The translations under genes were made by a program, and so were the position numbers. Below are positions 22,866 through 57,859 of a stretch of DNA of 64,000 bases, piece by piece. The notes under the pieces are model-generated. The model worked only from the letters and a program-made list of their open reading frames with translations. It was not told the origin of the DNA and did no database searches. The stretch is from Chiloscyllium plagiosum (lineage: Eukaryota): the NCBI RefSeq assembly GCF_004010195.1, contig NC_057751.1, positions 18,011,325 through 18,075,324 of the forward strand, in the 5' to 3' direction. How positions within the stretch are numbered: position 1 is the first letter of the stretch; each line of letters opens with the position of its first letter.

Positions 22866-22954
22866 TTGAAACTTTATTGCTGGAACAGCACAGCAGGTCA
22901 GGCAGCATCCAGGGAACAGGAGATTCGACGTTTCGGGCACAGGCCCTTCTTCAG
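22866..22954 (-). mobile_element. 89-bp PLE-terminus element with intact hammerhead core and 15-bp flanking direct repeat
   Basis: Minus strand CTGAAGA-a-GGGC ctgt GCCC-GAAACGTC-gaatctcc. GCTATTACTGGATAG occurs at 22851-22865 and 22962-22976. Confidence 0.85.
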
Positions 22955-23212
22955 TAATTGAGCTATTACTGGATAGCTCAATTAAGAATGAGTGACAACA
23001 TGCTCTTAAAATTGCTATAGAAGTTCTGGGGTTTGAAGATGATACCCAAATTTTCCAAGAAAATGTAGAAAGAAATGACCGTACTTGTAGGTCCAATGTG
23101 CCTGGACTCTGACAACATACGTCAGTAGAATAAACAAGAAGGCATACGGCATGTTCTCCTTCATCGGGATGGGTATTGAGTACAAGAATTCACAGGTCAT
23201 ATTACAGTTGTA

Positions 23213-23424
23213 GCAAAAATTGTGTTGCTGGAAAAGCGCAGCAGGTCAGGCAGCATCCAAGGAGCAGGAGAAGCGACGTTTCGGGCATGAGCCCTTCTTC
23301 AGGACTCATGCCCGAAACGTCGATTCTCCTGCTCCTTGGATGCTGCCTGACCTGCTGCGCTTTTCCAGCAACACATTTTCAGCTCTTATCTCCAGCATCT
23401 GCAGTCCTCTCTTTCTCCTAGAAG
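23213..23424. mobile_element. Fold-back PLE-terminus element, 71-bp arms, 14-bp TSD
   Basis: Arms 23221-23291 and 23305-23375 pair at 70/71. ATATTACAGTTGTA at 23199-23212 and 23425-23438. Inserted in a CR1 fragment. Confidence 0.92.
23270..23307 (-). ncRNA. Minimal type-I hammerhead ribozyme motif
   Basis: gagtc-CTGAAGA-a-GGGC tcat GCCC-GAAACGTC-gcttc. Core intact; one mismatch in stem I. Confidence 0.75.
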
Positions 23425-23624
23425 ATATTACAGTTGTATCCTCACAACACAGCCCTTAGCTGTTTCTACAAAATGTTATACTGTAACCTGGCTCCGAACT
23501 CTCTGTGCTTCTCTGGTCCTTGGTAGCTTTTGAAATCTCTTAAATGTGCAGTATCCCTTACACATTCATTACAATGTGGATGCAGACAGAATACATCAGA
23601 AAGTTCTCTTTGCTTTTACCGTGG

Positions 23625-24170
23625 ACCCACAGAGTCTGGCAGTACAGAAACCGTCCCATCGGACTGAACCAGTGCATGCCGACTAGAATGCCAAACGAAA
23701 CTAGTCCCACCTGCTTGCTCCTTGCCCGTGACACTCCAAGCATTTCTGATTAATGTAATTACCAAATGTCTGTTAAAATATGTATGGCACCCACATCCAG
23801 TAATTCCTCATTTCTGTTTAAAGCCCTCTACTCTCAACCTTAAAATGTGTCCCCTGCTCGTGACATCCGCCATTTGGTGGACAACTACCAAGAAGCCTTT
23901 CTATACCCCTGACCATGTTAGACACCTCGACATATTCGCCTCTTATCCTCCGATGCTCCAGTGAAAAAACAAACCCAGCCTGTTTAGCCTCCATTTACAA
24001 CTCAAACTACTATACACAGTAAGATACTTGAAGTTTCTTCTGAAATTTCTCCAAATTAATATATCCTTCCATAGGTAGGGCGACCAGTCTTGGACAGACT
24101 ATTCCAGAAGACGCTTCATCAATGTACTGTAAAACTTCAACATGAGGTTTCCATTGCTGTATTCAAAGCA
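23625..24170 (-). mobile_element. CR1 3' fragment, decayed
   Basis: Typical CR1 3' end in reverse (agtcccacctgcttgct..ctctcaaccttaaaatgtg). Confidence 0.7.
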
Positions 24171-24459
24171 CTGAGCAGGAGAGACGTTAAAGCGTTAGTT
24201 CGCTCAGGGTCACCTTGTAGCAGGGTTCTAATCGAGAGTTGCCTTATTACAAAAGTAAAAACCAACAATAATTCTGACTCACAGAAAGGGTTATCATATC
24301 CACAAATGTTACAGTTCCAACGGTGTCTTTGACAATCGGATACATATCCAGGTAAAATTGTTGCAAAGCACAGAAATGGAGAAAGGGTGAGACAACTCTT
24401 TTTAATGTTGCTTTCAATTACAGAGATACGTGGGTCAGGGAATAAACAGGAACAGCAAC

Positions 24460-25150
24460 GACCACTTCATTCTCGTTTCGATCGGAAAAGGAGGGAGTCA
24501 TAAGAATACCTGGGTTTTTCTCCAACTCCACTCGATGAAAGTCAGGTGAGGATGTACAATGGGATGTTCGGCCCTCCGAGGAGAGAGGATTAGAGTATAG
24601 AAGCAGGGAAGGACAGGAGGAGACGATACGCTGGGTTTTTGTGTGTGCTTGCGGTTTGGACTCTTCTGATCTGAGGAAGGATGTTCTGGCGACGGATGGA
24701 GGGCAAAGGACGCTATCCTGGACAGATCTCTGGGCTGACAGATGGAGAGAGACTGGATCGGGTTGGCATTATGTGTGAGTTTACGAGAATGAGATGGGTG
24801 GGGCATCAATGAATAATATCAAATCCAAACAGGGAGCAGACAGAGTAAGGAATGTCCAAATCACTTGTGGGAGTGGTGCTGGTGATGCGCGGGAAACCAG
24901 AAACATGAGGTCACAGTGTAAGGTGTCGACAGCGGAATTAAGATTGCAAAGAGCTTTCTTCACCCAGAGAATAGGTGGGAGCCTGTGGAATTCTCTGCCA
25001 CAGAAAGACATCAGGGACAAAACATTGAGTGTTTCCAGGAAAGAGTTGAATATAGTCCTTGGAGTGAAAGGGAGGTAGTGTTGATGAGGACAGAGCTCGG
25101 TGGTTAGATCATGATCGAATTGAATGGTAGAGTCGGCCAGTAAGGGTCAA
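24460..25150 (+). mobile_element. Old CR1/L2-clade 3' fragment
   Basis: FFTQRIGGSLWNSLPQ motif in ORF 24794-25078. Confidence 0.6.
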
Positions 25151-26779
25151 GCACATCGCCTTTCTGTGAGGAAGCAAACAGAGTTCAGACAGGCATTACA
25201 CCCGTGAAACTGCTGTAACTCGTATACCCGATATATCTTCCATATGTATCATTTCATAGCAGTGGTAACAGTTGGGGACTGGGCTGATAGAAATTTTAAC
25301 GACAGAATGTGACACACAGACTTCTGCCATTTTCAGAAAGATTTTCTTTACGAGTGAATGCGTGGATTCCATCCCAAGATTGTTACGGAAGGTTCCTGTG
25401 AGGAATCTCAAGCAGAGGAGACATCTGGATTCAACAGGAATTCCGTAATCTGGTCTGAATATCTGTGTCATTACTTATTTTAAAGAAAACTTGCGAAATC
25501 TAGTTTTGCAGATTTGCAGTCAGAAACAAATAGATTAAAATGTATCACTAGCTATATTAATAACTGACTACACAATTTTGTCCAACATATGTTGTGTCTA
25601 GCAGAGTAGAGTCAGTGCTTGAAGCTCTTCCTAAACGTTTCGAATGAAGAAATTATGTACAAAGATGGTGCCAGGCTTTGAGGGTTTGAGCTGTAGGGAG
25701 AGATTACTACACTTATTTCACTGGAGCGTCGGAGGCTGTTGGGTGACATTATCGATGTTTTCAATTCACGAGGACACGGATAGCATAAATGGACAACGTA
25801 TTTTCCTGCTGATGGGTGAGTTGAGAACTAGAGGGTATACATTTAGGATGAGAGGGGAATGATTTGAAAGGGACCTATGGGGCAATGTTTTCATACAGAC
25901 ACTGGTATCTGTATGGTCTTAGCTGCTAGAGAATGTGCTGTAGGCTGGGCCAAATACTACAGTTAAAATGCCTCTGAATGAGTAAATGAATAGGAATTTT
26001 TAGAGGGATATGAGCCAAGTGCTGGAAAATATGAACGGATTACTTTAGGATATTTGATCGGCATGGATATGTTGGATTGAAGGGTCTGTTTCCATGCTGT
26101 AAATCACTATGATGTTACCGGTTAACATAAGAAAAATCTCCGCGGCACAGAGTCGTGAAGATTTGAAAATTTTCTCCACCATTATTAATTTTCAAGTGGA
26201 GTTTAAAGTGACCCTGTCTTAAATACTTCAAAAAATCTCTTGAAGCTACAGACCAAATTTTACACCAACTGACTCAGCATTCAAATAAAGTCACAGAGCG
26301 GTGTAACATGAAAACTTGGACTATTTTGGCCCGGCCGATATGATATCCTCAATTAATCTAGCCCGATATACAAATATTTGGCCCATATCCAGACAAACGT
26401 TTCCTATTCATGTACCCATTTAGATGGATTTTAAATTTGATAATTGTGTCAACCTCCAACACTTGGTCATGTATCTCATTCCATTTTTGCTCCTCCTTAT
26501 ATTTTGTAGTTTCGGACTCCACAAGACTGTGAAAAGGCCTCGACTATTCTACCAATCAATACCCCTCATGACCTTATCAAAACTCCAGGGAAAAGAGACC
26601 CAGCGGATTCACCTTCTCCGAATACCTCAAACCCTCCAACACTGGCAAAGTCCTTCTAAATGTTTTCTGAATCCTTTCAAGTTTCACACCATCCTTTGCA
26701 TGGCGGTTGTACTGAAAAGTTGTTTATACATAAACCAAATATCATTGGGCAACTACTTTTTGTCTGTGCTAATTGAACC

Positions 26780-27887
26780 AATTCAAATGAAACACAACAA
26801 GACATTCACGTGCAAACTGAATAATTCCAGTCAGCACTCTTCCAATAAAGGACAACGTGTAGACTTTCCATTTGGTTGATCAATTAGTCGAGCCAATAAT
26901 CATTTCTGCTGTACAAGATTGGACACTTTTGAATATGAGCTGCAGGCAAGAGGACGAGACAATGAGGAGTCGAGGAGCTGAAATCCAGGGATTTATTAGT
27001 GCTAAGTGGATGGAATAATTCAACAATTGTTTGGAGATTGGAAAGTTTTTGAGAGCTAGATCCTGTAAGCCATATGTTACGATCCGTCATACTGCTGGAT
27101 CCTTCACACGAAGAAACAGAAAACAGTGCATGTCCCTAAGAGCATCGTTCAACTATATTCCTAAAATTTTCACAACTTTCTGGTTAACCATAGCTGAGTC
27201 GTTGAAAATCCCCGTAATGTGCCGCAGAAGCTTGGTGGGGTGGCCTTCGATGGAGTCTCTGAAATAATTTTGTGTTTAGAAATAGAGATTTTGCGCAGTA
27301 CGATCTGAAACCCTCCAAGTTCCAGTTTGGAATGGAACATTTGAAGAAAGATGTTAATGCCCTGAGTGGAGTTTACATAGTCCCGCACTCACCATCAAAA
27401 CGTTTGCAACTACACTCACATAATTCTTCACTCCAGACCCTGTGGACATCCAGAAACTCCTCCGTGAAGCCAATAGTAAAGAATTATGTTCGATTTGAGA
27501 TTTTTTTCTACCCTTTCTTTCTGCTTTCTCCTCCCCACAGGCATGTCGGCTACTCGAATACTTGATTGATTAATTTCTTCAGCAAGCAGACTTTTGCTCA
27601 ATTGACTGGGTGAAGGAGAAGGTTGGAGCACACTTTGGAAATATAAAAACTGAAAATGTAAAAAGGAACCTCCGGAAATAATTTCAGTATCTGCTTGTGT
27701 CTCAGAATACAACTTTGCATCGTACCACAGTGGCATTAATGATTGGATTGGATTTCACGAGTTGCAACTGACCCCGGTGACTATGTGATCCTGTCCTAGG
27801 CCACTATTCTCTGTGCGACAGTAAAACAGCTTGTTTCAGAAAGATGCATTATTGTGTATTATTACTGCACAAATGCCAGGCATTGTG
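26780..27887 (+). pseudogene. NLR pseudogene copy 2, NACHT exon with internal deletion
   Basis: Paralogous to 18520-20254. YELQARGRDNEES joins directly to the AEIQGF-like segment; SYCWIL and FRNRDFAQYDLKPSKF follow; exon ends HKCQAL followed by GT. Confidence 0.85.
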
Positions 27888-29049
27888 GTAGTTCCTGATT
27901 TTGAACTGTTGGAGGAGTCAGTGAACAGACATGCATTATGTTCTTGCACTATAATAAAAAGAAACGGCTGCTCAGTACAACGACAGAAGCAGATTCGAAC
28001 CTATCTATGTCAATAATGTGAGGACTCAATTCATAATTTTGTCAGCACTCGAGAATCCAAAATTGATCTTTGTTGATCACAAGGAATTATTTCACAGCCT
28101 GTATTCAATCAGCAAGTAAAGATCACGAGAAGTGGCTGGTCGGTGTGGTTTTGCTGTTCCTTAGTGAATAAGACTTGATAGTGGGATGTAAATGCAACAA
28201 ACGTTTTATTAACCAGCATTTATGTGCATTGATGAAGAGGTCCTCATAATGTAAAAACACGGAGTAAAGAATAGAAATTTCAAACAGGGAGTGGATACAT
28301 CACTGTTATTGTTTACTTACGTCATAATTCCCCTGAAATAATCATACAACTTTGACTTAAATAAAATTTACTGGTGGAAAGCACCCTCAACTAAATACGT
28401 GGAGATTGTGATTACACAGGAAACATCCGTTATGTCAGGTGTTTAATTTTTTTCCGGATGAGCAAAAGGTTCCAGTTAAAACAACGTTTGCTGTGCCAGT
28501 ATAATGTACAAGCTAAAAAAAACTGAAGCATTGTTCTCAATTGTCAATTGGTGAGAAATGTGCAAAGCAATTTGAATTTAGATTCGTAATCATTACATGC
28601 TTAATATAATTGACCGTGTCTTATCAAGGGAATATTCCTAGTTACAGAAAAAGGGAATTCGTTTAGTTGCAAACAGCTAACAGTCTTGATGTTCCACAGT
28701 CTTCCCCCTTAGCACTTAACGCGAAAGTGTCGTGAGGCATTTGCCAGAGAATGCAGCCACAGCACAGAGAATGTCAAGGCTTCTCCCAAAGTGGGCAAGA
28801 ACTGGGCCAAGTGCAGCCGGTGTCACCAGAAATTTCTTTTTTTTTTAAAATCTAATTCATGTTTGAGACTCCACTCAATGTTTGGAAGGAATGTTTGGAA
28901 AATTTACCAGAAGTCTGTCCAGTGTGCACGTGCAGTTCCGGAAACATAAACGTTGAACAGGGAGTAACATCAGAATCTCCTGCGAGCGCATCTTTTACCA
29001 AACAGCAAACGTTCGTGGGTAGAAATTTCGATTCTCGGGGAAGAAGATC

Positions 29050-31965: not shown

Positions 31966-32178
31966 GTAGGACTGGAGTTTCCTAGAGGCAGCAGATTACT
32001 TACTCTCCGTCACTAAACGTACCTGTACAGAATCAGATTCAAAGTCAACATTGGAGACATTAATTCCATTCGTTTCCCAACTTTTATTTTTAACAGTTGT
32101 TCTAATATCAGAAACAACACAGCTGTTCTTATTAGAGGCGAGGTTTGGTTCGGGTTATTTCTCATTCATTTTGTTTAG

Positions 32179-32265
32179 GTTATGATAGAATGAACTGGGA
32201 GATTCAGGAGTGAAAGTGGTGCCTGTGTCCATGAGAAATCCAGCATGTCAGATACAGAAACTGCA
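32179..32265 (+). pseudogene. NLR copy 2 LRR exon (87 bp)
   Basis: L**NELGDSGVKVVPVSMRNPACQIQKL; donor mutated to CT. Confidence 0.85.
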
Positions 32266-32415
32266 CTAAGTACCTGACTGTAACTGACTTTTTATAATAA
32301 CTCAATGTTTGACGCTGCATGTTGTTACTGATATCAGGAACAGTGTATTACTATTTACTGAGGTTTGTTATGTTTCCTGCTCTGTTCCTCTTTCAACGTT
32401 TTGTCTGATTCTCAG

Positions 32416-34174: not shown

Positions 34175-35660
34175 TATTGTCTTACAATCTGTTTAAAACA
34201 TTTTGAAGAAGTAACAAAGAAGATTGATGAGGTGGACGTGATTTATATGAAATTCAGTAAAACGTTTGACAAGGCTACCCATGGTTTAGCATGGGTGGAT
34301 ATCATGGAATATTTGGAGAAGTATCTATTTCGGCCAGAACTGGCTGAAAGTTAGAAGGCAGAGTGTCATGGTGGAAGTTTTTTTTTAGACTGGAGGCCTT
34401 TGACGCGTGGAGTGCCACAAGGATTGGTGTTGGGTCCACTACTCTTCCGTCATTTATTTAGATGTGAGAATCAGTGGTAGAGTTAGTAAAGTGCAGATGA
34501 CATTAAAATTGGAGATGTCGTGGACAGCGAAGAAGGCTACCCGGGATTTGCAACGACATATTGATCAGATGCACCACTGGACTGACAGTTGGTGGATGGA
34601 GTTTAATTTAGTTAAATGTAAGGTGCTGCATTTTGGGAAAGCAAATCTTTGCAGGAATTATACACGTAATAGTAATGTCCTGGGGAGTGTTGCTCTACAA
34701 AGAGACCTTGGAGTGCACGTTCCTCGCTGCTTCACTTTATACTTGCGGGACCATAATCTACAAACCAAGAGCCAGTTAATGCTTGGCTGGGTCCCCTTTT
34801 CCAAATCGCAAGGGCACTTTGTGCCAAACTGCCTCCTTCTGTGCTGTAAATGCTCTTTGTTTCTGTGAGCAGTCTTGCAGGTAGATAGGATAGTGAATAA
34901 GGTGTTTGGTATGCTTTGCTTTACTTTTCGGAGTATTGAGTACAGGAGTTAGGAGGTCATGTTGCAGCTGTACAGGATATTGGTTAGGCCACTTTTGGAA
35001 TATTGCATGCAAATCTGTTCTTCTTCCGAACGGAAGGATGTTGTGAAACTTGAAAGGATTCAGATAATATTTTCAAAGGTTTTGCCAGGTTTGGAGGATT
35101 TGAGCTATAGTGGGAGGTTGAATAGGCTGGGGCTATTTTCCTTGCAGCGTTGGAGGCTGACGAGTGACTTTATAGAGGTTTATAAAATCAAGAGGATATG
35201 GATAGGGTAAATGGGCAAAGTCTCTACCCTGCAGTGGTGGAGTCCAGAACTAAAGGCATAGCTTTAGGGTGAGAGGGGCAAGTTATAAAAGATACCTAAC
35301 GGGCATCTTGTTCACCCAGAAGGTGGTACATGTATGGAATGAACTGCTAGAAGAAGTAGTGTGGGCGAGGGTCTCCTTAGGGTGCTTCCACTGTCCATAG
35401 ATGTTCACGGTATGTGAATTGACCATGCTAAATTGCTCATAGTGCGAGTTACATTCGTCAGCGGTAAATGTAGGGAATGGGTTTGGGTGGGATGCTCTTC
35501 AGAGGGTCGGTGTGGGACTTGTTGTGCCAAAGGGACTCTTTCCACACTGTAGGTGATCTAATCTATTCTTACCTAATGTAATCTAATATCTGGGATATCT
35601 GGTCTGCATAATTCGGTTTGATCAAAGGATCCGTTTCCGTGCTCGTCTCCTCTATGACTC
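34175..35660 (+). mobile_element. CR1 RT-to-3' fragment with nested HE1 piece (about 35375-35590) and a foreign insert (about 34705-34870)
   Basis: FEEVTKKIDEVDVIYMKFSKTFDK, WWMEFNLVKCKVLHFG, LYRILVRPLLEYC; ctctatgact tail. Confidence 0.88.
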
Positions 35661-36970
35661 CACAACTTGATTTCAGAAGAGGGGTTTATTCCGTTTGCAC
35701 ATGAGCTTGTTGCGATTTGAATGAGGATTGGTGATGATAACTAATAGCTTTCTGTTTAGATTGTGTACAGCACGACACAACGGTCTCATACTTTTTTAGG
35801 CTCGGAGAGCAATCCGAGACATCTCTGTTTGTCATGACGTGGTGATAGGACAAAGAATCAATCTTCTCCCTTGCTATGTTTTTTTTGTTTAATTGGAACC
35901 ATGATAGCCAGCATGCTAACACGGTTTATAACACACAACCTTCAGATTTAAAAACAACTGTTTCACGACTGAGCCACACTTAACACTGATGTCGAATGTA
36001 AATCCATCAGCTTAACTAAACTGTGCAACAGATTTTAATAACTGAACATTAACGATATAAATATAATGCACAAAATATGTAGAGTATGTGATCTGGGACA
36101 CGACTATTGTTACTGGCCTGGGAACCAGTGCAGCATCAGGTGACATTTTCGGGCCGACAGGCAGAACTGCAGATACCAACGTACCATCCTGTAGTCAGTC
36201 ATGACAATGTGGGGAAGAATGCAAGACTGCTCATTGAAACAGAGAGCGTTTACAGCCCAGGAAGAGGTAGTTTAGCACAATGTGCCCGTGTGGATTAGAA
36301 ATGGGATTCCAGCCCCGCATTACTTGACTGTTGGTTTGTGGGTTATGGTCAGTCAAATGTAAATCCAATGTTACTAATTCAACCACCGCTGAGTAGAAAG
36401 AATCATCTTCGCTTGCCCTCTGAGCGTTTTTTTTTTCCCTTTCTTGTTGTCGTCTCCTTAGCAGAATGTGTTTTCCTACTGACTACTACTAAACTTGAAT
36501 AATATTTTCTCTTCAATTAAATGTTATGTCAATGTCATCGCTTCCATAGACGCATTGCAAGGAAAAGAATTGCAAGGTTACCAAGCAGGGCAGTGCTGGA
36601 AGAAGAGTTGTCATTGTTGTCATTACACGGGAGGCACTGTTGCGCTTGTAAATCATATTATGCGGAGAAACGTCAACTCTTCGATGTTTTCACTACACCC
36701 AAGCCCACACAGTTCCAACGAAATACATCCCTCATCTGATTGCAAAACTAAATACAAGTTCTGTCTGCGCCTGACTGCCCCAATCGTGATTCTTTTGTCT
36801 GATTAAAAAACAACAAATCTCCGGGTGCTCAAAACTGTTTATCCACACCTTTTGAAGCAGCCAATGGGGCACCACTGTGGCAATACCTCGCTGCAAGAGA
36901 AACAGCACATAAAGACCTCCTGAAGCACCATCACAAGAAGTGCATGTGCATCGCTTCTTCTTCTAGCTCT

Positions 36971-37849: not shown

Positions 37850-39560
37850 TCCGGAATATAATGAACCTTACCCCACATACTTTGTCTCGGATTTCTGGTT
37901 AATTCCTGTTGTTACAACTTCATCAAGAAAGATGGCATCCCAGATTAAATATGACAACACGCTTTGCATCGTCGACTGAATAATGGCACCGACGGTTGAT
38001 ACCCCAAATGGCAGTCTCGTACATTGTTACAAATCCATATGGCATTAAACGAAGCAAGTTTCTATGAATTCTTAGAAAAGCGTGGTGTACATGGCTCATA
38101 TTCGGATTCATTAATCCCTTCTCCGCAACCAGCCCCCACCTGCCACAGTTGCAGACAAGTTCTCTGTGCAAATGATTTAGCATTTATCCACCGGGAGAAC
38201 TGGTTAACTGTTTGAATAAAGTTGCCTCAAATTGAAACCGATCCATCGATCTTCACAATTATTGGAAACATTGCTGTACATTCTGCTAACTACTCTTTTC
38301 TGCATTCCCTAAATTATCAGCTTTCTGACCCATGCCTCTACTTTTGCACTTAATGGCGCTGGATGGGCCTGTAAACTTGCATCTCAGTTCAAGTGCAAGA
38401 TGGTGAAAAATGTGTTGCTGGAACCAAGTGTAAGTTATCTGACTAACAGAAGGAGCAGGAGAATCGACGTTTCGGGCTTTCTTCAGGCTTATGCTCGAAA
38501 CGTCGATTCTCCTGTTCCCTGGATGCTGCCTGAACTGCAACGCTTTTCCAGCAAAACATTTTTCAGCTCTGGTCTCCAGCATCTGCAGTCTTCACTTTCT
38601 CCTCCTTCACGTGCAAGATGGTGTTGGGCCCTTTGACAGTCCCTGAACCTTCCTGAAAATGGTTTGGGTGGTTAATTCCGACTACACTTAGTCAGCTATT
38701 TTCTCCTCGAAAAATGTTGAGAAGTCAAGTTGAATCTTTCTGAACTGGTTTCGCCCCATAAAACTTGGGGAAGGCATTTTCTGACAATTGGTGTTAACTG
38801 ACCAAGGTACTTTACATACCACTCTGGAACTGGAATTGTACCTTTAGTCTGTAAAAGCGTTCCAAGTGTAAGTTATCTGTCTAACAGAAGTCACGTGCAA
38901 TCGGAAGTGTTGGTCACCATAGCAATTTTTTTAAAGACTGTTTCTGCAATCACTGATACAGCCATGTGGGGTCAACCTCCTTTAGAATCGGGTGCCCCTT
39001 TAACCAGACTTTGATGGGTTTAGATTTGAATGTTGTGCAGCATATAAACTGTTTTCAGGCAAATATAGGTGCACGTTCCATACTGGAAATCTTAATAAGT
39101 TAATTCTGGCTACTCAGACTTTTTTGTCTTCCTGATGACGCATGCCAACAGCAACTGCAATGGTTTGCTAGCGCACATACGGAGGACAGTGCTAAACATT
39201 TGTCCGTAGCTTGGATTTTCTTTTTTATTGTGGAGGGGTTGTGGTGTTTGCTGAGGGCTGACCTAGAGCCGATCTGTTTATGTGAAATCGTGTGTAACTG
39301 CATGCAATTGCATTCACTCAAGTATTATGTGCAAAGCTCAGTCGACCTGGAGAGAGTACCAACTTCCATAGGCATAATTATGTTTTCAACTTATCACTTA
39401 TCTAAAATCAACGCCAGCTGTAGTGCCTGTTCAAGTTCAGGACGGCTTCAGCTAGAATGTGCCTATTTTATCATTAAATTAATCCCATTAACATCATGAC
39501 TGAAATAACTTCATCGGCGCCAGTATCCTGTCACCAGAGTACCATCTATTCACGCATGCA
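37850..39560 (-). mobile_element. Decayed Gypsy LTR-retrotransposon gag-protease-RT fragment
   Basis: Minus strand ILAEAVL..QALQLAL (gag), PSFMGRN..RKIQLD (end of protease region), IVKIDGSVSI*GNF..TVNQF and TRLPFGVST..IIQSTM..AIFLDEV (YLDD equivalent). Confidence 0.8.
38406..38605. mobile_element. Fold-back PLE-terminus element inside Gypsy pol, 18-bp TSD
   Basis: TTCAAGTGCAAGATGGTG (38388-38405) vs TTCACGTGCAAGATGGTG (38606-38623); inverted arms around cttcagg. Confidence 0.88.
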
Positions 39561-41588
39561 TAGTACTTCCCACTAGTCTGGCGTCTGCATAATCACCTCT
39601 CAAAGTGAACTGAATCTCTAATATTCCTTTTTTTCTGCCAGTCACGGTTCCGTGATTCTACCGGATTAAAAGCCCCAGTCATATTCAATGAGGTTCACCA
39701 AGCTGACGTCGGTACAGGCATGATAACCGTGTAAGGATAGGCAGGCAAGGCCTGCATTCATTGGACTTACACATTGACAGAATTGAGAGGGGTAAAAAAA
39801 ACTATAATGATTCTGATGGAACCAGACAAAATGGACTTGGAAAAAATGTGTCCTATTGTTGTAAAATCGAAAGCTAGGATATTAACTTTTAATGATAGTA
39901 GGGTATCTATTTCAGGAAGATATGAAGAAACGTTTATTCCTTTACTAAGATTCTTCTGAATCGTTGTAATTCCCTTTCAGAAAAGGCAGTGAGTGTAGAC
40001 ACTTTCTTTTTTGTTTGTTAAGGCAGACACAAATATATTTTTGATTTCCAAGGGGTTGAAAGGCTATCAGGGAGGGATTGCAGATGTGGCGAATTGATGT
40101 GAAATTCGGATTGGACCGGATCTTATGGAATGGCTGTGCAGGCTGCTTCCTCATGCGTTCAAATGTTGGTGTCGCAGTTTCAATGGTAAAGGTGGACTGG
40201 TGCAAACACATTTTGCCTAGCTTGTATGTGGGCAATGCATTTCTGAAGTCTTGAGATGTATTGATAGAGAGTATCGCATCGATACACCACAGGATCCACT
40301 CTACTAGCTTTCAGGCGCATGGAGACGGAATGCAACTGAAATCCAATTGATAGCCTCGTACTCAAGATGGTTTGAGGTCTCACGTTACTTCGAAGGTATT
40401 GACGTATTTCTGCGACAGCCCATGTCTTATGTTCTGCATAATCCTGCTACTTTCTGTTACAGTTTAGAGTCTTACCGAGCCAAAGACTGGGGCTGTACTC
40501 TTCCCATGAAGCATCCAAACCTCTGGAGTTTTTCTTCATAAATTACGGTCTTCAATAATTTAAGTAGATGAATGAGTAAATGTGAGTGTTCTGTGGGGTT
40601 AATCAAAATTACTACAACTGGTTAGGTGCGTGATTCTGACCTGAGCTGTAGACTGATCCATTTATGCAAGATGGAAGAATGGGAAAATCGCCTTAAATTA
40701 ACACATTCTGTTAAGTGTTTAATCCTGATCGAGCCTGCAAGTTGATCCCCTGAGGGAAGGCAGAAGGTGGCCAGATTTAAATATCAAACTCAGCTAATTG
40801 CTGGGATTGGGGAGGCCTTGAGTATTTGATCCCGGTGCCAGTGTTTTATCTTGTTGGTTTGTTTTGCTTTTTGTCTTTGTTTGCATCTTTTTCATTTGCC
40901 TATTGGAGACCGATCTGCATTCAGGACCTGGTATGTGAGAATGGGATCGAGACACGCCGCAAGACTGAAGCGCCAGTCCCAACTTCAAGGTAATTTTATC
41001 CTGCAATGCAGGCCGGCACCCGTCCTTTTGTCCCAATGGAGGAGACGCTGAAACTCCACAATAAACATGAGAAATGCAACACGGAAGTTAGAGAATTCCC
41101 TTGTTGAGTTTCATGAAGTGCATAAGAGCCATCAGTCGCTTACAGTTACAATCTGGGTCAAAGTCCTCGGAAACCTTTCAGAAACCCTCCCACTGTACTG
41201 GCGCCTTATTCCCCTAAGTATCCCAAATTCCCGTCGTAGTCGGGATTGCTGCGGTTGATACTTCCCAAATAAGCAGGAATGCTGGCCACTTACAGAATGC
41301 TGTCAGAACTAGTTTAAGAGTTCACACTACTTGGCCACAATTTACTCGTGCAAGTACTCAGCAGGGGCACCAACAGAACGTGTTGGTGAAAGCATCTCGT
41401 GTTTCACAGCGATTGGTGGTAAAGCACTTCTTTGCCAAGGATTATGAAAGGTGAAACTCCACTTAACATGTCCTCGGCTCACTCTCAGTCCCGTGGCATG
41501 CTTCATGAGGCCCCAATCCGCTCTAGTGGACAACATTTTTAAATTCGTTAGTACAAATCTGCAGGATTCATAAATGCTTGCCTCACAG

Positions 41589-42495
41589 CTAACATAGTAA
41601 CAGTTGTGATACTGTCCCGGGAAAAGTGTGCTCTCTCCAAATGTGTCACTCGCTACCTGATGGCCATGGCAATGGCTGATGTGCCGGTTATTATCGTTGA
41701 CCTCATATTGCGACACATTCCATTTGTATATATGGACGAGTATCATTTCTTAGAAGGCATTCCTGTGTGTAATATCCGCGCTGTCCTGCTTTATGCAGCC
41801 ATTTGACTGTTTTGCCTGGTTAACTGTCGCTTTCACCTTTGATTGTTTTGCGGCTATTTGCTGCCCAATTCTGAAAATTAAATATTGCAATATAAAAACA
41901 ACGGCTGTGGTTCTGGAAATGGTGATTGTCTTGAGCTGTTTGAAGAATATTTTCTGGTATTTCATTTCACAGGTCAGTATTATCCGAGGAACTGAACATG
42001 TTTTTGTTGTATTAAAAGAGAAGTCAAGTTTTCTCCAGCATGGGGAGCAATTGAGTTATTTCATTACATACTAACCCCGGGAGTTGCCTTTACTCTTATT
42101 CTGCTTTTCAATTTTTTAACGGGCAGACACGTTGTAGTGACCAACAAATTCCGCAAGATATTGCACATCAAAACAACAGGAAGAGAGCCAGAGGCCAAGA
42201 GCTGAAGAATCGAAGGAGTTCCATCACTTTATTGTTTTTTTTTTAATCTCAGGTAATTTTCTACTGTTATGGTCAGTATCATTGGTATTTTCCATAAATT
42301 GGAGAATGGTAAGTTTGGGATATCAATTCCAAGATCTCCCTCTTGGCATAATGGAACTGGGCCACATGCTCCAAGTGCTCAGTTGCTGCACAAACACTGC
42401 AATTTATGGCATCACACATCCTACGTTCAGACAGCAATTGAAGAATATGGTGAACTATCCTTTTACCCCACTTTAAAAATGGATTAAACATTGAT
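41589..42495 (+). pseudogene. GPR139-like class A orphan GPCR pseudogene copy 1 (main exon, TM1 end to TM7)
   Basis: AG acceptor, then NIVTVVILSREKCALSKCVTRYLMAMAMAD, TVAFTFDCFAAICCP (DRY equivalent mutated), KYCNIKTTAVVL, ELGHMLQVLSCCTNTAIY. Frameshifted. Confidence 0.88.
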
Positions 42496-44049
42496 AATTG
42501 CTGAAACATTACACCAGCAACAATCAATTCTTCATCTATTTCGATGCAATCTTCACGCTCTGTGTCAGGTTTATACACGTCTGTGTAACTGAATTATGCA
42601 TCCAGTTCCTCTAATCTGTGATTTTTGCATCTCCAAACTGACAGAGTGCAACGTATTTTCTGCATTCCAATTGGTTCTGTTGTACCAATGTTTCGGTTTG
42701 TGTGTGTGTCTGCATGTGTGAGGCGTTCGTATAGTCTGCGCGTAAATGTAAGATACATCGACAGAGGATAAGCTTCAGTAACGTGCCCACTACTCGAGAG
42801 TGATCACGAAATGATGAAATGTCGTCCAGTTAATACGTGGGAATGGTAATAAACATGGGAATGAACCCAATCTATAAATTTACATGAAACAAATAAAAAC
42901 TCGTAAAAGCACATTTTCTTTATGGTAGACTGCAAAAGAAACAGAAATGTTCGCATGGTTAAAAAAAAACGAATGAGCAGTGCTTCAAAAGTGAGTGGTT
43001 CCAAATGAACCTGTTTTGCAAAAACCTGGTGTAGTGTAATTTTTCGCATGTCAGATAAGCACTGTTGGGCTCTTAAAGTGACATTTCATAACTCTCAAAA
43101 AGAGCTCTCTTTACAGAGAAACATTAAATTTAACGATCATTTGACAGTGAACGAAACTTGTCAATGCTGTGGAGCTGTCTGGATAAGTTTAGGATTTTTA
43201 ATGAAAAGCAATGAATGATTTTTCGGAACAAAGGGAGACAGTCGCATGAAAACGGAAATTAACACGAAAAGATTCGAAAAGGAGATGGTAAGAACTTCGA
43301 CAAAGTTAGATATCGGGATGACGGTTGGAAAATAAAATATTAATCCCTGAATGAATGGAACGCTGGACCAAACAATGGGAGAGGAGGGAAATGGTGTGAT
43401 CCTTGAACAAATAACTTTTAGCTCTTTGTATAGATGAAGACATTAAAATGTCCAAAACAGAGAATCAGGTGTTAAAACGAGAGGAAGAAGAAATGATTGT
43501 AAGAAATCATTATCATTATTGACGAACTTAATGAAATATATGGATGGCAAGAGTGTTGGGGAAAAGTGGTAAATTAGAAAGCCACAATAATATTCTCTTG
43601 AAGAGCCAATGCCGATACAATGTTGCAAATGACCACTGTCAGTGTTGTACTACGGCTGTGATTCTCATGGAGAAAGGCAGCTGGGTAAATGTTCATCAGT
43701 TTCCAGCACCTGAACATTTACATTTTAGAATCTCACACTAAGTGACAGCAAAACTCGTGTAAGATTCGGTTTAATTTTACCAAATTCCTTTGTTCTGGGA
43801 AGCATAAGTGGATCAGAGAAGCAGAACATCTGATATTCAGCATCTTCCAAAAGGCTGAATTGAATGTGTTGAGTCAGGACAGCTAAGCTGAAAGCCGTGG
43901 TTTGCTCCCTTTGAACTCTGTTGGAATCCAGGCACACTACCCATTCCTAGGGCCGGGATATGAGCAGGAAAAGTGTCCAGGCGCAACTCCTGGAAGCCCG
44001 TGGTTTGCAACTCCACTAGCATGTTTGGAACACTGTGGAGCATACGTCT

Positions 44050-44795: not shown

Positions 44796-44799
44796 GCTG

Positions 44800-44887
44800 A
44801 ATGCTGGTGAAGAGCTTATGGTCGAAACGTCGACTCTACTTCTCCTCGGATCTGCCTGACTGGTTATGCTTTTCCAGCGCCACACTC
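44800..44887 (+). mobile_element. PLE-terminus element with degenerate hammerhead
   Basis: CTGGTGA-agagcttatggtc-GAAACGTC-gactc..ctgcctgac..cttttccagc. Confidence 0.75.
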
Positions 44888-45491
44888 TTCTGTCTTTTTC
44901 TCCAAAGCTTGGATATTTCCCAAATGTTTGCTGGGGAGGGGCGTGTGGCTTGAATAAATGGAGTTTCTGACCCACCTAATGTCCAGCGTGGCACCCACAT
45001 GTTCTGCGTGGCTGGGTGCTCCTAGTCAATCCTGGATGTCAGCGGGTCTGATAGATGTGTGGGTGCTCTTCATGTGGGCCTGCGAAAAATGTTGGAACAG
45101 CGTGTGGGTCTGTTGAAATCGCTGAGGGAATTCAAACTTTTCATAAAGTATATCAGTGATTCTAATGAGTTCCTGGTCAGTAGTCCTGACCTTCAGCGCT
45201 CCGACGGTCTTATCGTTGACCTGGACTCCTTGATGTCTTTTTATTGGGTGTTCAATTCTTATTCCTGTGGTTGTGGGGCCTATTTTTCCAGCTTTCGGAT
45301 TCGTCCTCGGGTTAATGGTTCCAGCGTTGGTAATCGTAATTTGTCAATCAGGGCATCCTCAGACCTACAAGTAGATTGAAAATACTTAAGAAAAAGATCT
45401 GCTTTCGACAGCTTGCCAGGATTTACCTTGCTCTGGCACCAACTCAGATGACCTTGGAATGTTTCTCCAAAATATTACGTTGTTCAAACCT

Positions 45492-48230: not shown

Positions 48231-48369
48231 CAGGTCTGTCAGAAATTTCTTCCAATTTTAGAATTAGCCCACAGACTGAGGAGGACTGTGCTGTGTGGAC
48301 GGGATATATCTTTTCTGTGCTGAGAACGATGCCCAGAAATCCATCCAGTTTCTTTGAGTGTTTGTAACC

Positions 48370-50279: not shown

Positions 50280-53210
50280 AGTCTCAGAGTCATACAGTCA
50301 TACCACAGGAAAAGGACACGTCGGTCCAACCTTGCAATGCCGAGAATGCTCCCAATCTAAATGTGTCTCACCTCCCTGCTCTTGGCCAATATCCCTCCAA
50401 ATATTTCTTTTTCGTGTATTTAACTGTAACCTCCCGGACACAGTGTTACTGATGATGTGTCATTAATATCTTGTATATCCTCGACATGGCATTCCAACTT
50501 TTGTTCTCAAGAGTTTGAGTAATGTGAGAAAGCATGCTTTTAATGCCTTCTTAGCCACAGCATCCATGTGTGATGCAAATTTTGAATCATTTTATACCTG
50601 AACCACTGGGCGCAGCTGCTTGGCACCTCTGCCCAATACCCTACGTTTAATACCATAAGCCCTGTCTTTATTTGATTTTTTAACGGAATTCATTTATTCA
50701 AATTAAACTCTATTTACCACTATTCAGCCAATCGACTCATTTGGTCAAAATCTCTTTGTAATCTGAGATAACATTCTTCACTTAACACTGTTCAGAAATC
50801 TTTATGTCATCCGCAAACTTACTAAACATGCTTTCTTTGTTATTATCTAAATAGTCTATAGTCCAACATATTGCCCCGAAAAGTCTTTTTTCTCATCTCT
50901 ACGATCATTGACATCAAGCAGAAAGCAGGAGAACAGAAGAGACGTGCATGAATGGAACTGGGATTGAGAGGGTTGTGACGGTCACCTTCCTGGAGTGACA
51001 ACAACTGAAAAACTGACCTGGACATCTCAAGTTGATGCGACATTAAAGAAAGTACAGCAGCGCCTCTCCTTATTAGTCAGGCAAACACAGGTGACGTGCA
51101 TAATGGAGCTGAGATCGAAAGTGTGGAGACCACGATGTTCCTGGAATGACAATAACCGACAAACTGTCCTTGACTTCCCACGTTGATACGACATTCAAGA
51201 AAGTGCAACAACGCCTCTCCTTCCTCAGGCGACTAAGAAATTTTGGCATGTTCGAAAAGAATCTCAGCAACTTTTATTGAGGCGCAATTTAAAATTGCTG
51301 TGCACAGGACGGTAAGAAAGTACACAGATTTGCGTACACAACCATCATGGAAACCAACCTTCCACCTTTGGACTCATTTTACACTTCTCGCAACCGTGGA
51401 AAGGCTACCAACATCAGCAACGGGATTTCTCATCCCGGGAATGCTGTTTTGCAACCTCTTTTTTCAGACAGAGATACAGACGCTCGAACACACATACAAA
51501 TACCTTCAAGAACAGTTACTTCGTTGTCGTTATCACAATGACGAGTGTACTCAATAATGACAAATAATGTTGACCATATTAATGTTGATTTTCATTCATG
51601 CACCTCCAGTGTTACCTGTGTGCATCACTCTGTCTAAACCGCCTAAAATCTGTAGATATGTGCTTACTATGATCTATCTGTAAGGCACAAAATCAAAAGT
51701 TTTCACTATACTTAAGTACACATGATGACAAATCAAATCAAATCAGCCATGCATATGAATGACAATAAATAGTATACTCAGCACTGAACCATCTGGATAA
51801 CCCCTTGTCACAGGTCTCCAGCCCATAAAACCAGCTTCCACAATCACTCCCTGTCTACTGTTGTTAAGCCAATTTTGTATGCAACTGGCAAGCTAATTTC
51901 ACAATCCCATGTGATCTCACTTTTCGAATTAGTCTAACCAGTGCAAACTCGTAAAAAGGCTTTGCTAAAGTCCAAGTAAACAATTTCTATTGCTATGAAC
52001 TCGTCAATCACCTTGGTTACTTCATCAAAAAACTCAATCAAGTTAGTGAAATATGACTTTCCTCACGCAAACCCATGCTGACGATCCCCAATCATCCCTT
52101 GATTGTCCAAATGCATGTGAATTCTATCTTTCAGAATCATCTCTAACAACGTAACCATCACTGCATTCAGACTCACTGGTCCCCCCTACCGTCTCACATG
52201 TTCTTGGGATATGCTAGATCCAGTATTGGAGATTTATCTACCCTATGTTTTCTGAGACATTCCGCACTTCCTCTTCTGTAACGTTTTCAAATTATCAATA
52301 TTTATCTCCTTGAGCTCTTTAGCCTCCATTTCTTTCTCCACGGTTAGACATTTAACGACTTTTAACTTTTAGGGGCCCTACTATCGCTGTAGTTGTTGAC
52401 TTGCTATTAATGTACTTGTCGAATCTCTTTGGATTATCCGTTCATTTGGCAAGGGTGTCTCGTTTCCCGTCTTTGCCGTACTCAACTCCCTCGTGCGAAT
52501 GCCCCTCAATTGTTTATGCTGTTCAAGAACTCCATTTGAATCCAGTTGTGTATAAATAATATATATACATATTATCAGAACCGCAATGTGTTTATTTGTT
52601 TAAGTTTCTTGAAGCCTACCAGCCTTACCTTTTACTGTAACAGTATCATAATGACACAAGTCTCTCGTCCTTCCACATTTGAAACGTTTTCTTTTCAGAC
52701 GTCCTTTTATTTGCGAACAGTCTGCTCTGAATAATTTTATGAACTTCTTGTCTCATTTCGTTGGATTTTGCCTTTGTCCAACTAAAATCTGTGTTCTTTT
52801 ATGGAAGGCTTATGATTTTCGATAATATTTTAAAACAAACAAAAATGAGATCACTCGGTCAAAAGTGTTCTGCTCACATTGCTTTAGACAGTTGTTCTCT
52901 CTTATTGCCCAAGAGAAGGTCAAGATTTGCTCCTTCTCTGCTACAAAACCTTGCATTTTCGAGAAAGAACGTTTTCTTGCACACATTTAACAAATCGTTT
53001 AACACCCAAATGTTCAACGTGATGGTAGTCCTAGCCAATGTTTTGAAGACTAAAACCACCTACGATTACAGTCTTATTATTCTTATATATACCGGAGATC
53101 TCCCTACATGTGTGTTCCCCAATTTACCTCTGACTATTTGGAAGTCTATTTTATACTCCATTCAAGGTGGTCATTTTATTTCAATGTATAATGTAAAGGT
53201 AAAATAACTG
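50280..53210 (-). mobile_element. Long decayed CR1 LINE
   Basis: Tail agagtcatacagtcata; REGANLDLLLGNK; QHGFA*GKS..LTNLIEFFDEVTKVID. Confidence 0.85.
50890..51745 (+). mobile_element. Rex1/Babar-like LINE 3' fragment nested in CR1
   Basis: LTWTSQVDATLKKVQQRL, HVDTTFKKVQQRLSFLRRLRNFGM; (AATCA)n tail at 51731-51745. Confidence 0.75.
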
Positions 53211-53452
53211 TCCTGACGTCAATAAATGCTTAAGCAGTGTCACAATCACTCTCCCAACCTCAGCCGGAGTGGTCGGAGTGGTCGGAACATACAAAATAAT
53301 GACATATTTGGCCAAACACTGAACTGTATATCTATAGCCTTGCTCAGAATCTGACTCAGATTCTTCATTGCAATTTCGGCTTGTATTATTCAGAACGCAG
53401 GAATTTGTCAGAATTGATTAAAGTTAAAAAATGATTACATATAAGGTAGAAC

Positions 53453-53523
53453 GTGGTGCTGGAAAAACACAGCATGTGAGAAGAAGAAGAATCGACTTTT
53501 CGGGCATAAGCCCTTTATCAGGA
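53453..53523 (-). mobile_element. PLE-terminus element, internally deleted, degenerate hammerhead
   Basis: Minus strand CTGATAA-a-GGGC ttat GCCC-GAAAAGTC-gattc. Confidence 0.75.
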
Positions 53524-53639
53524 AACTTGTGCTTTGCTTAATGCTGAGTAGTTTGGCCAGTTGAATTCTATATCGAACACAGAAATTTACATTTATCTCT
53601 AACATAAGATGAAGACGTGTCTAGTCTACCTGCTTAAGA

Positions 53640-54130
53640 TACTTTGAGGGTGCCTGACCACGTCCATAAACGTGTCAGACATCCTAAGGGGCAATCTTTC
53701 ATGCAGAGGTTAATGCGTGTATGTAATGAACTACCAGAGGAAATAGTGGGGACTAGTACAATTGCAACATTTAGATGGCATATGGATGGGTATGTGAATA
53801 CGAATAGTTCAGAGGGATATGTGCCAATCACTGGCAAATGTGAGCAGATAATTGGGATATTTGGTCGGCATGTACGAGTTGAATCGAAAGACGTTTCCAT
53901 GCTGTACATCTCTATGACTCTTGGACTCTGTGTGCAGGTTCGATTAATTGGCCATGCTATTTCTTTTTCTTCGTGTTTAGGGATGCGTATGCTCAGATGC
54001 ATTATTGTGGGGAAATGTCGATTTATGGGGATGACACTGGTTCTGCGTGGGATAATGTTCGAAGGGTTGGTGTAGAACTGTTTGACATAAATGGAATCTT
54101 TCACATTGTGGGGATACGATGATTCTATGA
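53640..54130 (+). mobile_element. CR1 3' end followed by a decayed HE1 3' half
   Basis: gctgtacatctctatgactc tail near 53910, then tgtgcaggtt..aattggccatgcta. Confidence 0.75.
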
Positions 54131-54432
54131 AACAAAACCATCCACTGTGACTAATCTCTGTACAGCATTCTGTAAAACACGTTGAGTTCCTGTGGTTTCT
54201 GCTACTGTGAACAATTAATTGAAACCATAAGAAAAAAAATCATTGAACAGACATTTTAAAAATCATTTTAATATCGAATGGTAATATTTCGATTCAACAA
54301 ATAACGTTAGCCTTGGCGCAATCTCTTGCTCCAGTGATTAGTACTTAGTGTCATTTTGACATCCTCAGACAATGCTCCAGAAAACTGATATTATTCCAAG
54401 CAGAAACTATAACTACATTATTTTCCTTGCGG

Positions 54433-55330
54433 CTAATGTAGTAACAGTTGTGATCTTGATCCGGCAAAAATGTGGTTTCTCCAAATGTGTCACTCACTAC
54501 CTGATGGCCATGGCAATAGCAGATCTCCTGGTTATTTTCATTAACCTCATATTATGCCACATTCAGATTGTGTAAAAGGAAGAGCATCATTTCGTGGAAG
54601 GCATCCTTGTGTGTAATATCCACGCTGTTCTGCTTTGTGCAGCCACTGACTGTTCTGTGTTGTCCACCGTCACCTTCAACTTTGATCGATTTGTGGCCAT
54701 TTGCTGCCCAAATCTGGAAATTAAACATTGCAACATGAAAGCAACGTCTATGGTTCTCGGAATGGTACGGGGTAGAGCTGTTTGAAGCAAATGTTGTGGT
54801 ATTTTATATTCAAAGGGCAATATTACCCGCTGAACAGACCATGGTTTGGTTTCTGAAAATGAGATGTAAAGTTTTCTCCGGTGTGGGAGGCAATTGAAAA
54901 AGATCATTGCATACTAACAACGGGAGTTGCCTTTCTTCCTTTTCTGCTTTTCAATGTTTTGACTGTCAGAAACCTGATAGTGACTGGCAAAGACCGCAAA
55001 AGACTCCAGCATCAAAGTTATACGAAGGTCGCCAGGGACTTAGGATGAAGAGTCGAAGGAATTCCGTCATTTTATTGTTTCTTATCTCAGGGAATTTTGT
55101 ACTGTTCTGGTCAGTATCAACGATGTTTCCCATAAATTGGAGAATGGTATGTGTGGGATATCAATTCCATGATCTACCAGTTTCCGTAATGGAAATGGGA
55201 CACATGCTCTAGGTCCTCAGTTGCTGCACAAACACTGTAATTTATGTCATCTCACATCCCAAGTTCAGAGACCAGTTAAAGAATATGGTGAAGTATACCT
55301 TTTCTCGACTTGTCAAATTGATCAAATCAA
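54433..55330 (+). pseudogene. GPR139-like GPCR pseudogene copy 2
   Basis: NVVTVVILIRQKCGFSKCVTHYLMAMAIADLLV, ATDCSVLSTVTFNFDRFVAICCP, MKSRRNSVILLFLISGNFVLFW. Acceptor is GG rather than AG; stops at 54573 and 55210 plus frameshifts. Confidence 0.9.
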
Positions 55331-57736
55331 CTCTGCTTCTATTTCTATGAAATCTGCACTCTTGATGTCTGATTATCGGCACTTTTGAAACGATATTCTA
55401 CATCCAGCGCTTCAGATCTTTGAGTTTTGCGACTCTAAATTGCCTGTTCAACATTCTTTTCTGCAGAGCAGTTGGTTCCATTGTATCAATCATGAGGATA
55501 TTTGCTGAATCCAAACACGCGCATGTGTGTGTTTGTGTGTGTGTGTGTGCACGCGCACATCTTTCAGTCTGTCTGTGTATCGGTTGCACATTCTCTCCAT
55601 GTCTGTGTCTAAGTGTAAGATGGAGCATAAGGCAAGCTTCACTAACATGCTCACTACTCAAGAGTGATAACAAAATGATGAAATGTCGTCCAGTTTGAGA
55701 GCGATAAACATACAAATGAACCGAATCCATACACTTAAAAAGAAAACACGTGAGAGCATACTTTGTTATGGTGGACTGGTAAAGAAAGAGAAATACTAGC
55801 ATGGTAAATATGGTGAAGGAGCAGCGCCCCAGAAGTTAGTAGCTCCAAATAAACATGTTGGACTATAATCTGGTGTTGTGTGATTTTCGGCATGGTAAAT
55901 AAACTGTGATGCGCTCTAATCGTGACATTTCACAACTCTCAAAGAGCATACTGTTCACAAAGATACACTTGAATGAGATGGGAGCACTAATCTTTTAATT
56001 TAAGGATCATTAGAAAGTGGATGAAATTGGTCAATGCTGTGAAGCGGTCTCGTTAAGTTAGGTCTTTTTTTTCAAAATGCAATCGACGGTTTGTCGAAAA
56101 GGTGGGCGACAGCTGCACGGAAATGTAAAATAACAACAAGTGATTCACAAAGAAAATGAAAGGAACTTCGACAAGTTTTGATAAATAGATGACGATTGTG
56201 AAAGCAAATATTCATCCCTGATTGAATGGAACTCTGTAATTAAAACTGGGAGTTGATGAAAATGCTGTAGACGATCAACAAATACCATGCAGCTCTTTGT
56301 ACAGAGGAAAGCATTTTTAAAAAATGTACAAAAACAGAAATCAAGTACTAAATAGGGAGATTGGAGAAACGATTAGAAACAACCATCACCAGTGACGAGC
56401 ATGTACTGCAGTGAAAAGCTTGGAAGAGAGTTTTGTGAAAATGTGGGAAATTGGCAGCAGGTAATGATACCCTCTTGAACAGCCAATGGAAATACAATGT
56501 TGAAAAAGACGTCCATCTGCGCTGTATGAAGCCTGTGATTCCAGAATTTAAGAATCTTAGACTAAGTGACAGAAAATGTCGTGCATTTTGGGTTTAATTT
56601 TGCTAAACTCTTTTGTTCTGAGAAGGACCCAGTCGATCAGAGAAGCAGAATATCAGCTGTTAGAAATCTTACAAAAGGCTTGGTTTACAATGGTAAGTCC
56701 GGGCATTTAAGCACAAAGCCGTGATTTGCTCCCTTTGAACTATGTGAGAATCCAGGCTCATTTCCAGTTCCCAGTGAGCAGGAAAATACTCCAAGTGCAA
56801 AAATCTAATCTAATCTAATCTGATCTAATCTCCTGAAAGCTCGTATTTTGGAAATGGACTGGCCGCTCGTACACAGTGGAAGATCCACTGAGGGAATCAC
56901 GTCTGTCAAGTCACGTTTCTTCCTTCTTCTTTCCATTGTGAAAAGCCCAATTCACTCAACTTCTGTTCATACAACAAGCCCTCTGATCCAGGCAGCATCC
57001 TGGTAAATTCCCTCTGCACTCTCTCTACAGCATCTACATTATTCCCATAATGAGGCAAACAGAAGTGTGCACAATATTCTAAATGTGGTCCAAAAAACGT
57101 TTCACTGAGCTGCAGCAAAACCTCGCTGCTTTCCAACTCAACCTCCTGTTAATGAAAGCCTTCTGAACAAATTGGGTAGTAACGTTTACGGTTCTACGTT
57201 CGTGGATAGCAAGATCCCGCTGTACCGCCACACTTCCTTGAATGCTGTCTTTAAGAATGTTTTCAGCATTCAAATTCGACCTTCCTAAATGAATCAGTTC
57301 GCATTTATCCAGGTTCAACTCGAACTGTCTCTTCTCAGCCCAGCTCTGAATCCTGCCAATGTATTTTTGTAGCCTGCAACACTTCTTGTCACTATCTACA
57401 ACACCAACAACCTTTGTTCATCGGCAAACTTACTGACTCACACTTCCACTTCTTCATCCACGTCATTTATAAAAAGTAAAAAAATGCAGACGCCCAAGAA
57501 GGACACCACACATCACGACCAGCAGGCAGAATGCTTTCCATATACTACTACCTGTTGTATTCTTTTCGTCAGCCAATTTTTCAGCAGCAAGCCACATTCC
57601 CCTGCATCTCATATCTCCTAACGTTCTGAATGAGGATACGTGGGGAACCTTATCAAATACCTTATTGAAATCCATTTCCAACACTTCCACTGCTCGACCT
57701 TCGTTACATTCAAATAACTCAACAAGATTTGTGAGG

Positions 57737-57859
57737 AGAAAGTGAGGTCTGCAGACGCTGGAGATCAAAGCTGAAACTTTATTGCTGGAACAGCACAGCA
57801 GGTCAGGCAGCATCCAGGGAACAGAAGATTCGATGTTTCGGGCACATGCCCTTCTTCAG
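57737..57859 (-). mobile_element. Single-unit PLE-terminus element with hammerhead core and about 12-bp TSD
   Basis: Minus strand CTGAAGA-a-GGGC atgt GCCC-GAAACATC-gaatc..cactttct. AGATTTGTGAGG (57725) vs AGACTTGTGAGG (57858). Confidence 0.85.

Follow-up and report, generated by a model that had tools for sequence, protein, structure and literature searches.

Hammerhead-like hairpins with a quiet stem and a variable loop in short pieces of probable Penelope-like elements of a shark genome

Introduction

Why would a small hairpin, scattered through dispersed and decaying repeat copies, hold its stem while its loop differs from copy to copy? The question is raised by a 64,000-nucleotide stretch of the Chiloscyllium plagiosum genome (NCBI RefSeq assembly GCF_004010195.1, contig NC_057751.1, positions 18,011,325 to 18,075,324 of the forward strand; hereafter the window, numbered from its first letter), in which short 3′-end pieces of a probable Penelope-like element (PLE) carry such hairpins, and for which a sequence-only reading had proposed that a fixed stem II around changing loops points to selection on RNA structure in the source elements. 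We consider it probable (roughly 0.8) that stem II and the ribozyme core are fixed since only those source PLEs that kept the fold went on copying, with inactive, decaying stubs left behind. Minimal hammerhead ribozymes (min-HHRs) were defined in the pseudo-long terminal repeats (pLTRs) and repeats of PLEs from many animals (Cervera and de la Pena 2014, PMC4209133), and the supplementary alignment of that study has helix II and loop II differing freely between families; the pattern of a fixed stem and a variable loop is one already published there for PLE hammerheads.

Hammerhead motifs in the short family

A profile search of the repeat returned 17 stretches in the window. Twelve arms from the short family extend into the ribozyme region (Table 1), each running on one strand through core, stem II, GAAAC, GUC and tail. 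Their hairpins are likely stem II of a type-I minimal hammerhead motif in short PLE 3′-end pieces. Five of the hairpins first read there are exact, with a perfect GGGC/GCCC stem on the minus strand around the loops CTGT, TCAT, ATGT, TTTT and TTAT, and a sixth, at 575-586, has the loop GTAT but not the GGGC arm, reading AGGC-GTAT-GCCC with its outer pair broken. The coordinates of that first set stood, whereas its coverage did not: six of the 12 family arms had been left out, several of them with broken stems. Core boxes with a stem of at least four pairs occur three times in the window against a mean of 0.29 (maximum 2) in 100 dinucleotide shuffles, and a relaxed descriptor gives 15 matches against a mean of 3.97 (maximum 8) in 30 shuffles.

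The features that define min-HHRs recur here, namely a CUGANGA/GAAA core flanking helix II, an extra base between A9 and position 10.1, a G10.1-C11.1 pair, and no helix III beyond the palindromic 15.2-16.2, which U16.1 and H17 follow, with GAAA-CG-U-C/U kept in five of the ten motifs examined and CpG-type or other single changes in the rest. Helix I reaches 4 bp at 4681 alone and 0-2 bp in the other nine, since most copies stop at the core. Both core boxes are kept in five of the ten motifs, and CGU in two of those five, where stem I measures 0 and 1 bp; no motif among the ten is therefore complete. Among six matches to Rfam covariance models up to E = 1, none was to a hammerhead, presumably because the motifs lack helices I and III; the Rfam matches in the window were of microRNA (miRNA) type and were rejected as chance matches to fold-backs.

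The mode of insertion also resembles that of PLEs, for which inverted truncated copies and a 30-40 bp tail are described (PMC8557442): a 5′-truncated copy, an adjacent inverted copy and a short tail are found at the three fold-back insertions of the short family (6022, 23212 and 38403) and at the longer 16219-17200 element. Copies are otherwise spaced 348 to 34,557 nt apart, with no tandem arrays of hammerhead-bearing units in the window. Tails end 97-99 nt after the cleavage site in five of the 12 arms, 46-63 nt after it in six and 81 nt after it in one (approximate values, read from alignment edges), and these two main classes, about 35-40 nt apart, resemble the two start sites reported for an anole PLE (PMC11167929). 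The predicted fold of the 23212-23420 insertion is one long duplex, in which the pair probability of stem II is 0.0 versus 0.77-1.0 in three solo contexts. At 22864, the insertion flanks (22850-22985) hold a duplicated target of about 15 nt, and the ribozyme end adjoins a small fold-back of target sequence.

Loop and stem variation

Among the six copies originally named, 1 of 48 stem letters and 7 of 24 loop letters differ from the majority, and across all arms the counts are 6/76 for the stem and 9/40 for the loop (p = 0.029). The six loops are not six independent states, since the CTGT copy (22864) and the ATGT copy (57734) belong to one subfamily, with tails 98% alike over 54 columns and a common loop G; both arms of the 23212-23420 insertion have the same loop. 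Probably, then, the six loops reduce to four lineages plus two private changes.

A wider sample came from four of 24 listed sequencing runs, aligned to window positions 23200-23308 at 80% likeness: 2,564 of 12,955,460 raw RNA reads from a polyA single-cell library, and 44,904 of 19,387,400, 34,421 of 32,417,302 and 11,389 of 2,290,627 contigs from three organisms. All position results below are those among the 40 listed of 109 difference rows, whose smallest top share, about 5%, we take to be the cut. These rows cover loop positions 1, 2 and 3 (position 3 with three letters), N7, the extra A, A14, A15.1 and every CpG of the motif, and none of them falls on loop position 4, the seven non-CpG stem positions, the six CUGA/GA positions, A13 or U16.1. 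ATGT and GTAT look private, their letters being absent from these rows. Loop position 2 is T at 69%, 34% and 77% of contig depth in the three contig sets (878 of 1,214 reads), loop position 3 is other than A at 11%, 5% and 18% (544 of 1,219 reads), loop position 1 is C at 1%, 0.1% and 11%, and N7 is T at 8%, 21% and 8% (305 of 900 reads); this depth weighting favours young copies. Stem and core changes in DNA are confined to CpG sites, with G12 and C11.1 at 3-8% of contig depth. Three of four loop positions but none of the seven non-CpG stem positions are variable (p = 0.024), and for loop plus N7 versus stem plus core the counts are 4/5 and 2/16 (p = 0.011). The reads and contigs support the fixed-stem claim better than does the window alone.

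Could the contrast be one of ascertainment and neutral decay, with intact-stem copies picked for inspection and GC-rich, non-CpG sites changing less than an AT-rich loop? The omitted arms with their broken stems lend this some weight, as do a borderline window test and a stem no quieter than the tail (both given below). We nevertheless find it very improbable, as loop and N7 variants stand at 5-69% of contig depth across the runs of three organisms, far above private decay, and the A/T core letters U4, A6 and A9 are without a row.

That N7 varies between fixed neighbours fits a hammerhead and not a plain hairpin. It also bears on an alternative that we hold to be unlikely, in which catalysis is irrelevant and the fold is kept because the element's protein reads it as a signal for binding, pausing or template switching. 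This alternative leans on Poseidon PAc of Anolis carolinensis (Frangieh et al. 2024, PMC11167929), an autonomous element assayed in vitro, unlike the window copies, which have no open reading frame (ORF): as described in that report, hammerhead catalytic mutants of the anole element still insert in vitro, and no RNA-seq reads start or end at the cut site. Some PLE clades are also reported to thrive without hammerheads (PMC8557442), several window copies stop at C3, and the window copies run through the cut site, which implies a template that was uncut or re-joined. Yet conservation falls on precisely the catalytic letters and leaves N7 free, and protein-assisted cleavage of the anole element is reported to depend on the C3-G8 pair (PMC11167929). 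Read start or end pile-ups were not seen among our aligned reads, which counts neither way, since a polyA single-cell library cannot reveal the cut end; no listed holder of the stretch is recorded as RNA.

The last loop base is T in 12 of 13 aligned arms, and its invariance means that loop and stem always read NUG. Protein-coding constraint could fix such letters if the start of a parent ORF overlapped the hairpin, with loop bases 3-4 and the first stem G forming ATG. The ORF of the anole element is described as starting at stem II (PMC11167929), and in the 4681 motif an ATG at 4687 (A9, the extra U and G10.1) starts a run of 45 codons (4687-4821, plus strand). Against this stand the A of the loop ATG, which changes to all three other letters, and the distribution of 17 variable positions in the ATG frame, which split 9, 4 and 4 on codon positions 1, 2 and 3; the frame with nine third-position variants contains a stop. 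Moreover, GGGC, the 5′ arm, is equally fixed despite its place upstream of the ATG, and the family at 17087 has no ATG there. Coding constraint is accordingly the explanation to which we give least credence, close to none.

Probable selection on the source elements

Selection on RNA structure in the source elements remains the best reading of a variable loop and N7 beside quiet non-CpG stem and CUGA/GA positions, even though the copies first advanced for it were a selected subset, and the following results weigh against it. With one arm per insertion, the window counts become 6/68 for the stem and 8/36 for the loop, which is borderline (p = 0.057). The tail differs at 61 of 467 letters (13%), and neither the stem (p = 0.22) nor the loop (p = 0.10) departs from it significantly; in the reads and contigs, too, 0/7 stem positions against 14/47 tail positions is not significant (p = 0.105). 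The position test rests on the 40 rows described above and on a cut of about 5% that is our own estimate; local alignment clips reads near the element end (loose ends at 23287), so that changes in the 5′ arm and core are under-counted; divergent subfamilies such as that at 44804 probably fall below the 80% threshold; and variation at loop position 3 may be inflated in the RNA reads, whether by editing or by a handful of highly expressed loci. Covariation gives no help: a double change occurs at one of four pairs in the window alignment, a count reached by 322 of 500 shuffles, and a pair that never varies is no covariation. As to the element itself, Pfam searches in six frames returned no family for either element body, a homologue search with the 4290 frame found none, and no full-length representative of the short family was found in the window.

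The pair count needs some qualification. Of the pair cells, 71% are paired, a level reached by eight of 500 shuffles. The ungapped alignment behind the count misregisters arms with 3-nt loops and junction arms; it contains two cells with a double change, a genuine one at 44804 and an artefact of shifted register at 16276. The former, missed by the sequence-only reading, replaces G-C with A-U at pair 2, with pair 3 broken. A compensatory change had instead been suggested for the longer PLE at 17087-17097 (plus strand, AGGTTATACCC), where the stem is indeed present but can equally be read as a one-base deletion plus one substitution. This stem, GGT-TAT-ACC, has its inner part in common with the inverted arm at 16274-16280, and the stem state was therefore probably present in the source.

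From these observations the following history may be proposed. Copying would have continued only from source elements in which the RNA retained the ribozyme fold, and this would have fixed stem and core. Source lineages would have drifted at unconstrained sites (loop II bases 1-3, N7 and the stem I side), giving subfamilies with the loops TTAT, TCAT, CTGT and TTTT and, less commonly, one whose third loop base is C. The loop and N7 variation is observed; we would assign it to source lineages. Reverse transcription would begin about 60 or 98 nt past the cleavage site, at either of two positions, would often stop at the front of the core, and would probably use uncut or re-joined RNA as its template. 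The resulting stubs would be inactive, since the window copies lack the 5′ strand of stem I. After insertion, decay would be fastest at CpG sites, and would account for the broken stems and the private loop letters.

Relationship to known Penelope-like elements

The motifs agree with the min-HHRs of PMC4209133 in their type-I layout, the CUGANGA-H-stem II-GAAA core, the extra base before stem II and G10.1-C11.1, as well as in the CG palindrome replacing helix III, the many solo truncated copies and the opposite-strand pairs; stem and loop II likewise differ between families. They differ from them in a stem II of 4 bp, versus 7-8 in the Schistosoma min-HHRs, and in that most window copies stop at the core, without stem I. 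No shark is among the min-HHR hosts in the available text of that study, and we found no publication on shark PLE hammerheads in a literature collection that omits most subscription titles. PLE hammerhead variants have been reported to cleave as dimers (Lunse, Weinberg and Breaker, RNA Biol 14:1499, as cited in the review PMC6765202), and their very short palindromic stem III, for which a second copy is required there, is like that of the motifs described here. Also comparable are the non-LTR (long terminal repeat) retrozymes of animals (bioRxiv 10.64898/2026.07.22.740005), reported from one chondrichthyan genome, which are non-autonomous, PLE-related and hammerhead-bearing; these are defined as tandem repeats, however, whereas the window copies are dispersed single or fold-back stubs.

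The family is present in sharks, since translations of the repeat lie within proteins that bear the names of Chiloscyllium plagiosum and Rhincodon typus. These were found through spurious translations, a route that yielded too few copies for reading the stem: one search gave three matches (two to the repeat and one to an unrelated repetitive protein), another one of 23 candidates, and another none. Both shark proteins have Arg across loop positions 4-2, which would fit yet another loop variant, one in which position 3 is C, and a matching row is among those listed. Pattern scans elsewhere gave 0 and 8 viral loci and three metagenome loci, all 11 of which lack hammerhead context and look like chance matches; a scan of prokaryote genomes gave no locus.

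Related elements and other repeats in the window

No reverse transcriptase was seen in the PLE copies of the window, and the short family has no ORF. The older 16219-17200 element has hammerhead motifs at 17079 (plus) and 16293 (minus), which have in common GT-TAT-AC and an A at core position 8. In both arms A8 stands opposite C3, and stem I has 4-5 bp only if that C pairs; A8 may have been present in the source or may reflect decay common to both arms. Around 16630-16830 (minus) lies a degenerate reading frame that resembles a PLE endonuclease end, an identity that is tentative. Inside the same element, purine-rich and pyrimidine-rich inverted segments (16464-16617; 75% alike over about 150 nt) have weak Rfam miRNA matches.

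At 4681, the two core boxes had been described as enclosing an unrelated stem II, and they do flank a different sequence, but the stem II there is itself decayed, with three contiguous pairs, two of them G-U, and -0.5 kcal/mol. The upstream frame (4290-4466) resembles GIY-YIG-type clusters (score 0.91), with 18-20% of members carrying the family.

The last base of loop II (23287 and its equivalents) is U, as it is in the loops at 17087 and 4681. In RNA reads whose first mate lies on the plus strand, T>C changes reach 104/905 at 23279 (A15.1), 91/885 at 23280 (A14) and 41/565 at 23295 (the extra A), compared with 12/701, 9/686 and 6/367 in the other read direction; they amount to 7-12% in RNA of the ribozyme strand and to at most 0.3% in two of the DNA contig sets. 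Of the 11 rows with A>G or T>C, nine are biased in the direction expected from adenosine-to-inosine (A-to-I) editing (p = 0.033). The bias may come from single expressed loci, since three rows of other kinds (23236, 23243 and 23250) lean as strongly. Editing of palindromic repeats is known, and the elephant shark is listed among hyper-edited species (PMC5625713). It is conceivable, though we would not count on it, that the invariant last U marks an undescribed tertiary or protein contact and that ADAR edits the GAAA core in fold-back transcripts, disarming a huge ribozyme population.

Beyond the PLEs, two long direct copies (41587-43985 and 54431-56799) lie about 12.85 kb apart, 79% alike over 904 nt and 67% over 1,255 nt. 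Many decayed copies resembling long interspersed nuclear elements (LINEs), with reverse-transcriptase-like end frames, lie at 9873-12800, 34557-35666, 62227-62796 and elsewhere; we take this repeat, with no Pfam support here, to be a shark CR1-type family.

Table 1 Penelope-like copies and hammerhead motifs in the 64,000-nt window.
Feature	Position	Strand	Description
Short PLE end-piece	22864-22954	-	Intact core, C3 at 22954; stem II GGGC/GCCC, loop CTGT (22935-22946); GUC; tail about 63 nt; without stem I
Left arm of fold-back insertion	23212-23302	-	Intact core; loop TCAT (23283-23294); GUC; stem I 1 bp
Right arm of same insertion	23303-23420	+	94% complementary to left arm; cut inside stem II; loop TCAT; tail 98 nt
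Longest solo copy	57734-57859	-	Loop ATGT (57840-57851); AUC instead of GUC; tail 98 nt; subfamily of the 22864 copy
Decayed copy	53448-53521	-	Loop TTAT (53502-53513); core broken (G8>A, C15.2>A)
Copy truncated immediately ahead of stem II	11256-11330	-	Loop TTTT (11317-11328); CUGA box absent
Old copy	505-593	-	N7 = G; outer pair of stem II broken; loop GTAT, probably private
Copy not named earlier	44804-44912	+	GAGC-TTAT-GGTC at 44812-44823; core broken
Fold-back insertion not named earlier	38403-38603	both	Plus arm GGC-TTAT-GCTC (38486-38496), one pair broken
Hairpin in minus arm of same insertion	38474-38486	-	Loop deleted
Decayed copy not named earlier	60363-60486	+	Stem at 60369-60380, 3′ arm GCAC; G12>A
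Fold-back insertion not named earlier	6022-6205	both	Minus arm GGCC-GAC-GGCC replaces stem II, in a different register
Older, longer related element	16219-17200		Inverted ends 16219-16299 and 17073-17150, 75% alike over 79 nt
Unrelated PLE end	4290-4800	+	GIY-YIG-like frame remnant 4290-4466; hammerhead core 4681-4714 with 4-bp stem I; then tail

Conclusions

If selection on the source elements is the right explanation, the window adds a shark family to the published PLE minimal hammerheads and leaves the known picture unchanged. It would also mean that even very abundant, non-coding stubs descend from sources selected for ribozyme letters, and the many young subfamilies would make a good natural data set on the role of the hammerhead in PLEs.

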